Below are positions 58,808 to 59,153 of a stretch of DNA of 64,000 nucleotides, piece by piece. The DNA lies in NCBI GenBank assembly GCA_964016885.1, contig OZ024749.1, positions 31,682,001-31,746,000 of the forward strand. Direction: 5' to 3'. The notes under the pieces were generated by a model, which had not been told where the DNA came from, searched no databases, and worked only from the letters and a program-made list of their open reading frames with translations. Numbering within the stretch: the stretch's first letter is position 1; each line of letters begins with the position of its first letter. This stretch comes from Eledone cirrhosa (Eukaryota). The position numbers were made by a program, and so were the translations under genes.

Positions 58808-59153
58808 TATATATATATGAATGTATATATAGTGTATTTTGCAATACACTGTATGCTTAATTAAAAGCATTTCGAAGACCTTATGCTATTGTTTTAGAGT
58901 AGTGAAAGACTCACTTACTTTAATTTCAGCAAACATCTATAAGAACCAAACATCCATGATTTCGGCAGACAGGAGGAGTAGTTGGCTTTGATAAGCATCA
59001 ATAAATGCGAAACAAGGCCTTGTCGGCTTTATCTCCTCCTGTTTGTTGAAATTAAAGTAAGTGAGTCTGTCACTACTCTAAAACAATAGCATAAGGTCTT
59101 CGAAATGCTTTTAATTAAGCATACAGTGTATTGAAAAATACACTATATATACA

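Follow-up and report, generated by a model that had tools for sequence, protein, structure and literature searches.

The insertion and its hammerhead motif

The window, a 64,000-nt stretch of contig OZ024749.1 of Eledone cirrhosa (assembly of 3.0 Gb), consists of microsatellite-rich animal DNA. At 58785..59172 it contains an insertion, bounded by (TA)n-rich tracts, that is made up of an inverted 3′ part and a single, 5′-truncated unit of a ~320-nt repeat. The inverted copy of the unit's 3′ part (58785..58935, − strand) includes a ~25-nt tail (about 58785-58809) and holds no ribozyme core. The truncated unit (58936..59172, + strand) spans about 235 of 322 nt and ends in (TA)n; the tail is confined to one end of the insertion, the other end having none. 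This unit is 96% identical to a tandem unit found at locus L185. A type I hammerhead motif lies on the + strand in the loop of a 133-bp inverted repeat, the arms of which (58803-58935 and 59040-59172) are 96% complementary. Both the inverted repeat and the high copy number of the element had been overlooked in the original prediction. An assembly artefact was rejected as the source of the inverted repeat, given the 4% difference between its arms and the recurrence of this arrangement at 42 of 78 loci.

All of the predicted features of the motif, i.e., core, stems, palindrome, and cleavage triplet, were found in their expected places within 58958..59053. Distal stem I, recognized from sequence and fold, joins 58958..58978 to 59033..59053 in 21 pairs, with G·U at 58958, 58964, 58965, and 58968. 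It is separated from proximal stem I by a 5 × 4-nt internal loop, the 5′ side of which (58979..58983) consists of UAG and two U residues. The proximal stem pairs 58984..58987 with 59025-59028 (G·U, G-C, C-G, and U·G), and its 3′ strand together with the 3′ side of the internal loop, which has A at position 1.7 and U at 1.8, occupies 59025..59032. The core strand U3-U4-G5-A6-U7-A8-A9 (UUGAUAA; 58988..58994) is followed by stem II (58995..59008), in which four pairs (58995-58998 with 59005-59008) enclose a 6-nt loop ending in A, and by core residues G12-A13-A14 (59009..59011). Helix III is a perfect 12-nt palindrome (59012..59023) that can form 4 bp and a tetraloop within a monomer or 12 bp between two molecules. 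C17 lies at 59024..59024, and the geometry predicts a cut at 59024/59025.

Folding of the motif gave z = −7.5, with 0 of 200 shuffles as low, a value owed mostly to the 21-bp distal stem. The only hammerhead match in Rfam was HH9 (19.6 bits, E 0.016), below the gathering score of 52, and the window copy did not reach the gathering threshold of any family in the Rfam hammerhead clan CL00010. A C3-G8 sister motif had no hammerhead match in Rfam at E ≤ 1. Matches to Rfam microRNAs were below their gathering scores and were dismissed as hairpin and (TA)n noise. That the motif arose by chance was ruled out by exact 30-mer matches, by matches of the family pattern (controls 0), and by covariation, all described below.

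Copy number and architecture of the repeat family

A hammerhead pattern for the family, in which stem II, the interior of stem III, and positions 3, 7, and 8 were unconstrained, matched the genome 3,814 times (control 0); its G at 1.1 kept the window copy itself out of this set. Exact genome matches of a 30-mer spanning the core numbered 293 (reversed control 0), and a genome similarity search yielded 2,312 candidates, 40 of which were scored, at about 95%. At tandem loci the unit measured 315-324 nt, had no ORF, and had a GC content of 33-35%. With one type I hammerhead per non-coding unit, the repeat falls within the size and GC range of retrozymes (150-450 nt, GC < 50%).

Insertion architecture was surveyed in the first 78 loci of the genome-wide list plus the window; the ends of copies with 9-11-nt palindromes are less exact in this survey, there being no reference unit for that group. 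An outward-facing inversion was observed in 43 of the 79 insertions, while 17 were tandem only and 19 single. The sequence (TA)n adjoined 83 of 122 3′ ends versus 10 of 36 5′ ends, and the tail occurred at one end only. Two intact motifs on the same strand and one unit apart were present at only 6 of the 78 sampled loci. The insertions thus combine 5′ truncation, partial tandems, an inverted head, a one-sided tail, and a (TA)n target, all of which are described for Penelope-like elements (PMC8557442), and their likeness to these elements extends to both the tandem and the inverted arrangement. When six units were folded as circles, z ranged from −1.5 to −8.3, which is at most compatible with circular RNA.

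Two further sequence features were noted. Directly after the distal stem, 65 of 101 motifs carry GTAAGT (59057-59062 in the window), a splice-donor-like sequence that also lies inside a small conserved hairpin; introns are known in Penelope-like elements. A block of ~17 nt situated ~50-65 nt upstream of the distal stem (L061-L090) is identical in this family and in a sister family of 72% identity, and is a possible promoter or protein-binding site. The window unit lacks this conserved upstream block, which is present in full units.

Covariation and history of the 3-8 pair

From the first 100 listed places among the 3,814 pattern matches, 101 motifs were recovered. The 3-8 pair was C3-G8 in 51, U3-A8 in 44, and mismatched in 6, and was therefore Watson-Crick in 95 of 101. 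G5, A6, A9, and G12-A15 were fixed by the search pattern, as was most of proximal stem I, so that these columns are invariant by construction. A tree built from the window copy and 55 motifs, each from a different locus and with undamaged flanks (184 columns, two label columns included), needed one change of the 3-8 label, with support of 100/99. U3-A8 therefore represents one event, not 44.

Covariation was scored in an alignment made separately from the window copy and 55 others, limited to stems III of 9, 10, or 12 nt. Overall, 94.6% of cells were paired and 13 of 27 pairs changed on both sides; such changes affected all four pairs of stem II, 6 of the 12 scored outer pairs of the distal stem (across subfamilies), and one of four in stem III. 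The covariation score was 0.346 versus 0.195 in shuffles and ≤ 0.107 in six slid controls, and 37 of 500 shuffles matched or exceeded the bare count of pairs changing on both sides. Paralogs retain the core, as the original prediction required. Covariation against the C3-G8 sisters likewise backed the assignment of a type I hammerhead with a compensatory U3-A8 core. As judged from these comparisons of copies, the type I motif is real and family-supported, and it is the subfamilies, not the window copy, that show selection on structure.

Changes private to the window copy

Relative to the majority of 95 subfamily copies, the window copy has 6 differences in about 226 nt (subfamily mean, 3%), one of them outside the ribozyme. 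At the other five positions the window base is shared by 2 of 89 copies (58964), 27 of 90 (58968), 1 of 94 (59025), 8 of 94 (59037), and 3 of 93 (59046). These five stem transitions, three of which are A-to-G, all keep or restore pairing on the + strand, which is mildly unusual. G59025, which adjoins the cut, is a private A-to-G change that gives a U·G pair; cleavage is slower when a wobble pair flanks the site. In contigs of runs X1-X3 (one sample), the window bases at 58968, 59025, 59037, and 59046 appear as minority letters.

The G·U pairs of the distal stem had been read as favoring selection on RNA structure, an argument that failed on comparison with the family. Two of the four involve the rare bases G58964 and U59046, a third involves the frequently shared G58968, and the fourth is a terminal pair. 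Most siblings have an A·C mismatch in the distal stem, and 69 rare distal-stem variants comprised 23 G·U, 15 A·C, and 30 other mismatches, with a single Watson-Crick pair. Rare changes across the 95 copies had no strand bias (A>G 30 vs. T>C 23, p 0.78; C>T 41 vs. G>A 39), and on this basis we rejected both an A-to-I editing signature in retroposed copies and the use of the G·U pairs as evidence for selection on the window copy.

Predicted monomer and dimer folds

The minimum-energy fold of the window copy was not a hammerhead. Positions 58984-58990, comprising the 5′ strand of proximal stem I and 58988-58990 of the core, were predicted to pair with 59013-59019, burying U3-G5, and the hammerhead was predicted to lie 6.9 kcal/mol above this inactive fold by nearest-neighbor energies, which ignore tertiary contacts and Mg2+. 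Considering also the private G59025 at the cut and the displaced U1.7, activity of the window copy as a monomer, put forward in the original prediction, appears doubtful. The median gap over the minimum was 7.0 kcal/mol in the window subfamily (19 motifs), 2.9 in the other U3-A8 group (27 motifs), 0.7 in the 12-nt C3-G8 group (17 motifs), and 7.0 in the 9-11/13-nt group (38 motifs). For the window copy, the predicted energies were −98.7 kcal/mol for a strand-swapped dimer, −92.2 for a pair of monomers, and −99.3 for the most stable dimer; the swapped dimer is thus predicted to be energetically competitive. Copies of the 9-11-nt group were not rescued by dimers (+4.2 kcal/mol per strand over the best dimer). 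The blocking helix is predicted to be complete before the cleavage triplet is transcribed and to persist in the whole insertion, in the fold of which a long duplex with the inverted head also takes up 14 distal-stem bases; it is 59040-59053 that can pair with the inverted head in this alternative manner in a read-through transcript. The RNAalifold consensus picks the core-blocking pairs.

A U seven bases after the cut occurs at position 1.7 in 51 of 51 C3-G8 copies and at 1.8, as in the window copy, in 40 of 44 U3-A8 copies, and the last base of loop II is A in 97 of 101 motifs. A contact between U1.7 and this terminal loop base has been proposed (PMC11875169). In having U1.7 and 6 bp in stem I, the C3-G8 sisters resemble canonical extended type I hammerheads, in contrast to the 4-bp proximal stem of the window copy.

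Helix III varied in length from 6 to 13 nt across the families and was palindromic throughout to its centre. In variants of 9, 10, 11, 12, and 13 nt the symmetry extends inward to the middle base or pair of bases; the exceptions are one common 12-nt variant with a GA centre and an internal mismatch in 6 of 101 motifs. The pair 63/66, at the position of the monomer loop, was A-U in 28, G-C in 8, and unpaired in 1. The palindrome is compatible with dimer formation, as had been suggested, and perfect palindromes can also come from template switching. Palindromic helices III of Penelope-like elements have been said to serve dimer cleavage, at low rates (PMC4209133, PMC6765202).

We tentatively raise the possibility of a built-in monomer/dimer switch in the U3-A8 lineage, where the longer palindrome would also act as an antisense strand to the core of its own ribozyme. 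Unit-length RNA would be locked in an inactive state and only paired ribozymes would cut, the switch having replaced the unstable helix III of minimal relatives. The subfamilies form a ladder with palindromes of 6, 9, 11, 10, and 12 nt that leads from C3-G8 to U3-A8, along which the blocking pair 3/15.4 is C-G in 27, U·G in 16, and U-A in 8 of 56 cases. With the 256 possible 12-nt palindromes as the null set, the natural sequences are among the top 2-6% of blockers in four of five U3-A8 contexts; in the remaining one the natural palindrome stands at 24%, and none of three C3-G8 contexts reaches the top 2-6%. This ranking of predicted folds, in contexts that are non-independent, lends modest support to a selected switch. 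No description of a regulated alternative fold in double hammerheads was found in the literature searched.

Related and neighboring hammerhead repeats

A sister family, with 215 of 297 aligned bases (72%) identical to the family of the window motif, was represented by 16,726 matches of a shared 19-mer, 12 loci of which were read; a DNA search with the sister-family unit returned nothing, although the 19-mer pattern gave this many matches. Its units, identical and 310-311 nt long, stand in arrays whose ends are like those described above, and its palindromic helix III is minimal at 6 nt. At L241-L270 (G000:C1 1.24, 5.39, and 5.54 Mb) and L115 the arrays comprise up to at least 14 identical units; they are inverted internally, end in (TA)n, and carry a minimal hammerhead of the C3-G8 type. 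The sister family is apparently very young and is the best candidate for an expressed circular RNA.

A loose descriptor scan of the window, run without a shuffle control, gave 6 matches. A second fold-back insertion (59250-59532) carries two minimal hammerheads on opposite strands (59422, +; 59359, −), each with a U3-A8 core and a 6-nt palindromic helix III. Their family has 12,338 matches in the genome, with U3-A8 in 99 of the first 100 matches listed, and no sequence link between it and the family of the window motif was seen. The special status initially given to the motif at 58958..59053 as the best ribozyme candidate is not supported, as U3-A8 is common in the genome, including this second family only 400 bases off, and is already published. 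Other minimal hammerheads, at 25784, 20348, and 7303 (all − strand), have C3-G8, an AT-rich palindromic helix III, and ends near (TA)n. The stretches 41231-41604, 42698-43217, 57330-57480, and 62190-62420 contain a short interspersed repeat that we take to be typical of octopus genomes.

An abundant, autonomous Penelope-like family (L121:2442-4214 plus 3′ flank; L123, L126, L132) has frames of up to 591 aa and a 3′ hammerhead with an 8-nt palindrome, an optional tail, and a (TA)n end. It shares no sequence with the unit described here. Both Penelope-like proteins encountered were presumed to be such from their RT 'DD', GIY-YIG, and Cys-linker motifs, and the Cys linker and GIY-YIG-like motif of the L121 family are, we assume, Neptune-like. 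A Pfam search named neither protein.

Discussion

The explanation that we favor, and consider probable, is that the window holds a 5′-truncated copy of a ~320-nt hammerhead repeat, likely a non-autonomous, Penelope-type non-LTR retrozyme, whose cutting is predicted to occur mainly as a double hammerhead. Tandem units would be transcribed, and two ribozymes would pair via the palindrome, forming a 12-bp helix III with swapped stems I and excising unit-length RNA. The unit would then be circularized and copied more than once round by the RT of an autonomous Penelope-like element, with template switching by the RT leaving tandems and inversions. A lone unit of the window subfamily would be inactive because its core is predicted to pair with the palindrome. 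The dispersed copies throughout the genome contradict the long, locus-confined arrays lacking a target site that would speak against retrotransposition. Consecutive complete ribozymes in tandem occur in the family (at the 6 of 78 loci mentioned above, and in the sister-family arrays) but not in the window copy. With one ribozyme and no upstream block, the window copy could not release unit-length RNA by two cuts and, given its weakened cut site as well, is most likely a dead-end insertion.

Some observations stand against parts of this explanation. The 21-bp stem closes early and must be exchanged in a double hammerhead, which presents a kinetic barrier, and 8 of 9 predicted Xenopus retrozyme dimers failed to cleave (preprint 10.64898/2026.07.22.740005). 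Two intact same-strand motifs one unit apart are present at only 6 of the 78 loci. Cutting mainly as a dimer is also at odds with the 12-nt C3-G8 subfamily, which is predicted to be near-active as a monomer (+0.7 kcal/mol), and with the lack of rescue by dimers in the 9-11-nt group. Rfam, moreover, does not call the motif. In the loci read, we found neither an autonomous partner sharing sequence with the unit nor an ORF joined to it (RT plus GIY-YIG between pseudo-LTRs), nearby ORF remnants being separate insertions. Among 42 endonuclease-bearing loci, a small part of 51,445 candidates, none had an autonomous pseudo-LTR homologous to the unit. Endonuclease remnants beside L024, L074, and L083 were rejected as partners, as they are separate or interrupted elements.

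The same element might instead cleave well as a monomer, through a 4-bp helix III and a contact between loops I and II, the long palindrome being incidental. The lengthening of helix III, which measures 6 nt in the sister family and at 12 nt suffices for a hairpin within one molecule, would fit this view, as would the near-constant final A of loop II (97 of 101), a stem I loop of the form U-N-C/G, and the C3-G8 subfamily in which stem I has 6 bp, U1.7 is present, and the hammerhead is predicted to lie only 0.7 kcal/mol above the minimum. We nonetheless think it rather unlikely, since the predicted gap reaches 6.9-7.0 kcal/mol in the window copy and its subfamily, the RNAalifold consensus consists of the core-blocking pairs, the blocking helix precedes synthesis of the triplet, and the window copy has a 4-bp stem I, a displaced U1.7, and U·G at the cut. 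Improbable, in our judgment, is a ribozyme that is decaying in the window subfamily, where cleavage is no longer needed, with palindromes and paired changes produced by RT template switching. Stem I does lose pairs along the lineage, the predicted advantage of the inactive fold increasing from 0.7 through 2.9 to 7.0 kcal/mol, template switching is heavy in the insertions, and the subfamily is old enough for 3% divergence. On the other hand, the 3-8 pair is a tertiary pair beyond repair by fold-back copying, yet it changed on both sides, as did stem II within the U3-A8 clade, and 293 copies retain the exact 30-mer around the core. Selection of the window copy for an RNA function at its locus, or A-to-I editing marks copied into its DNA, would suit five stem transitions (three A-to-G) that all keep or restore + strand pairing but is very improbable, as two of these transitions are shared polymorphisms, the copy was singled out after the fact, 95 copies have no strand bias, and the window copy is as diverged as its siblings.

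The retrozyme reading places the family beside several known systems. Metazoan non-LTR retrozymes are ~300-nt repeats with type I hammerheads (Cervera and de la Peña, 2020; PMC7229834), and retrozymes have been linked to Penelope-like elements (Li, Clavereau and Pollet, preprint 10.64898/2026.07.22.740005). The family resembles them in its ~300-nt unit with a GC content of 33-35%, no ORF, and one type I hammerhead, in its dispersed monomers, dimers, and arrays, and in its co-occurrence with Penelope-like elements. It differs in its U3-A8 core, 12-nt helix III palindrome, 21-bp distal stem, and frequent inverted heads. The 'active' rule of that preprint calls for two consecutive complete motifs, and the window copy has a single ribozyme.

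Hammerheads with U3-A8 are known from pseudo-LTRs of Penelope-like elements, including Schistosoma, with about 1,300 matches (Cervera and de la Peña, 2014; PMC4209133), and natural U3-A8 has been reported elsewhere (PMC3088659). The family shares with the pseudo-LTR hammerheads, among them that of Cercyon of Schistosoma mansoni, the type I topology, palindromic helix III, U3-A8 swap, and opposite-strand motifs a few hundred bases apart. Unlike them, as they are minimal with little or no helix III, it has a long helix III, an extended stem I, and no linked RT-endonuclease ORF. Extended type I hammerheads (S. mansoni Sm-alpha; Rfam HH9, RF02275) have in common with it a 4-bp helix II, a CAA...A loop, and the stem I internal loop, whereas the window copy departs from the canonical form in its score (19.6 vs. 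52 bits), 4-bp stem I, A at 1.7, and U3-A8. Motifs that match a descriptor can misfold, and core changes are tolerated unevenly (PMC3884650). Both U3-A8 cores and palindromic stems III are already published for Penelope-like elements. The family may already be included in the supplementary per-species lists of motif families in PMC4209133 and PMC7229834; the octopus and cephalopod hammerhead literature searched, with few subscription papers, describes no such family.

Taken alone, the window copy is of little importance. The family constitutes a natural series within one genome, in which the 3-8 pair was swapped once and the palindromic helix III changed length, and monomer versus dimer cutting of Penelope-type hammerheads is therefore directly testable with natural sequences. 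Hammerhead-bearing repeats of several families, one of them apparently very young, number well over ten thousand in the microsatellite-rich genome of E. cirrhosa.
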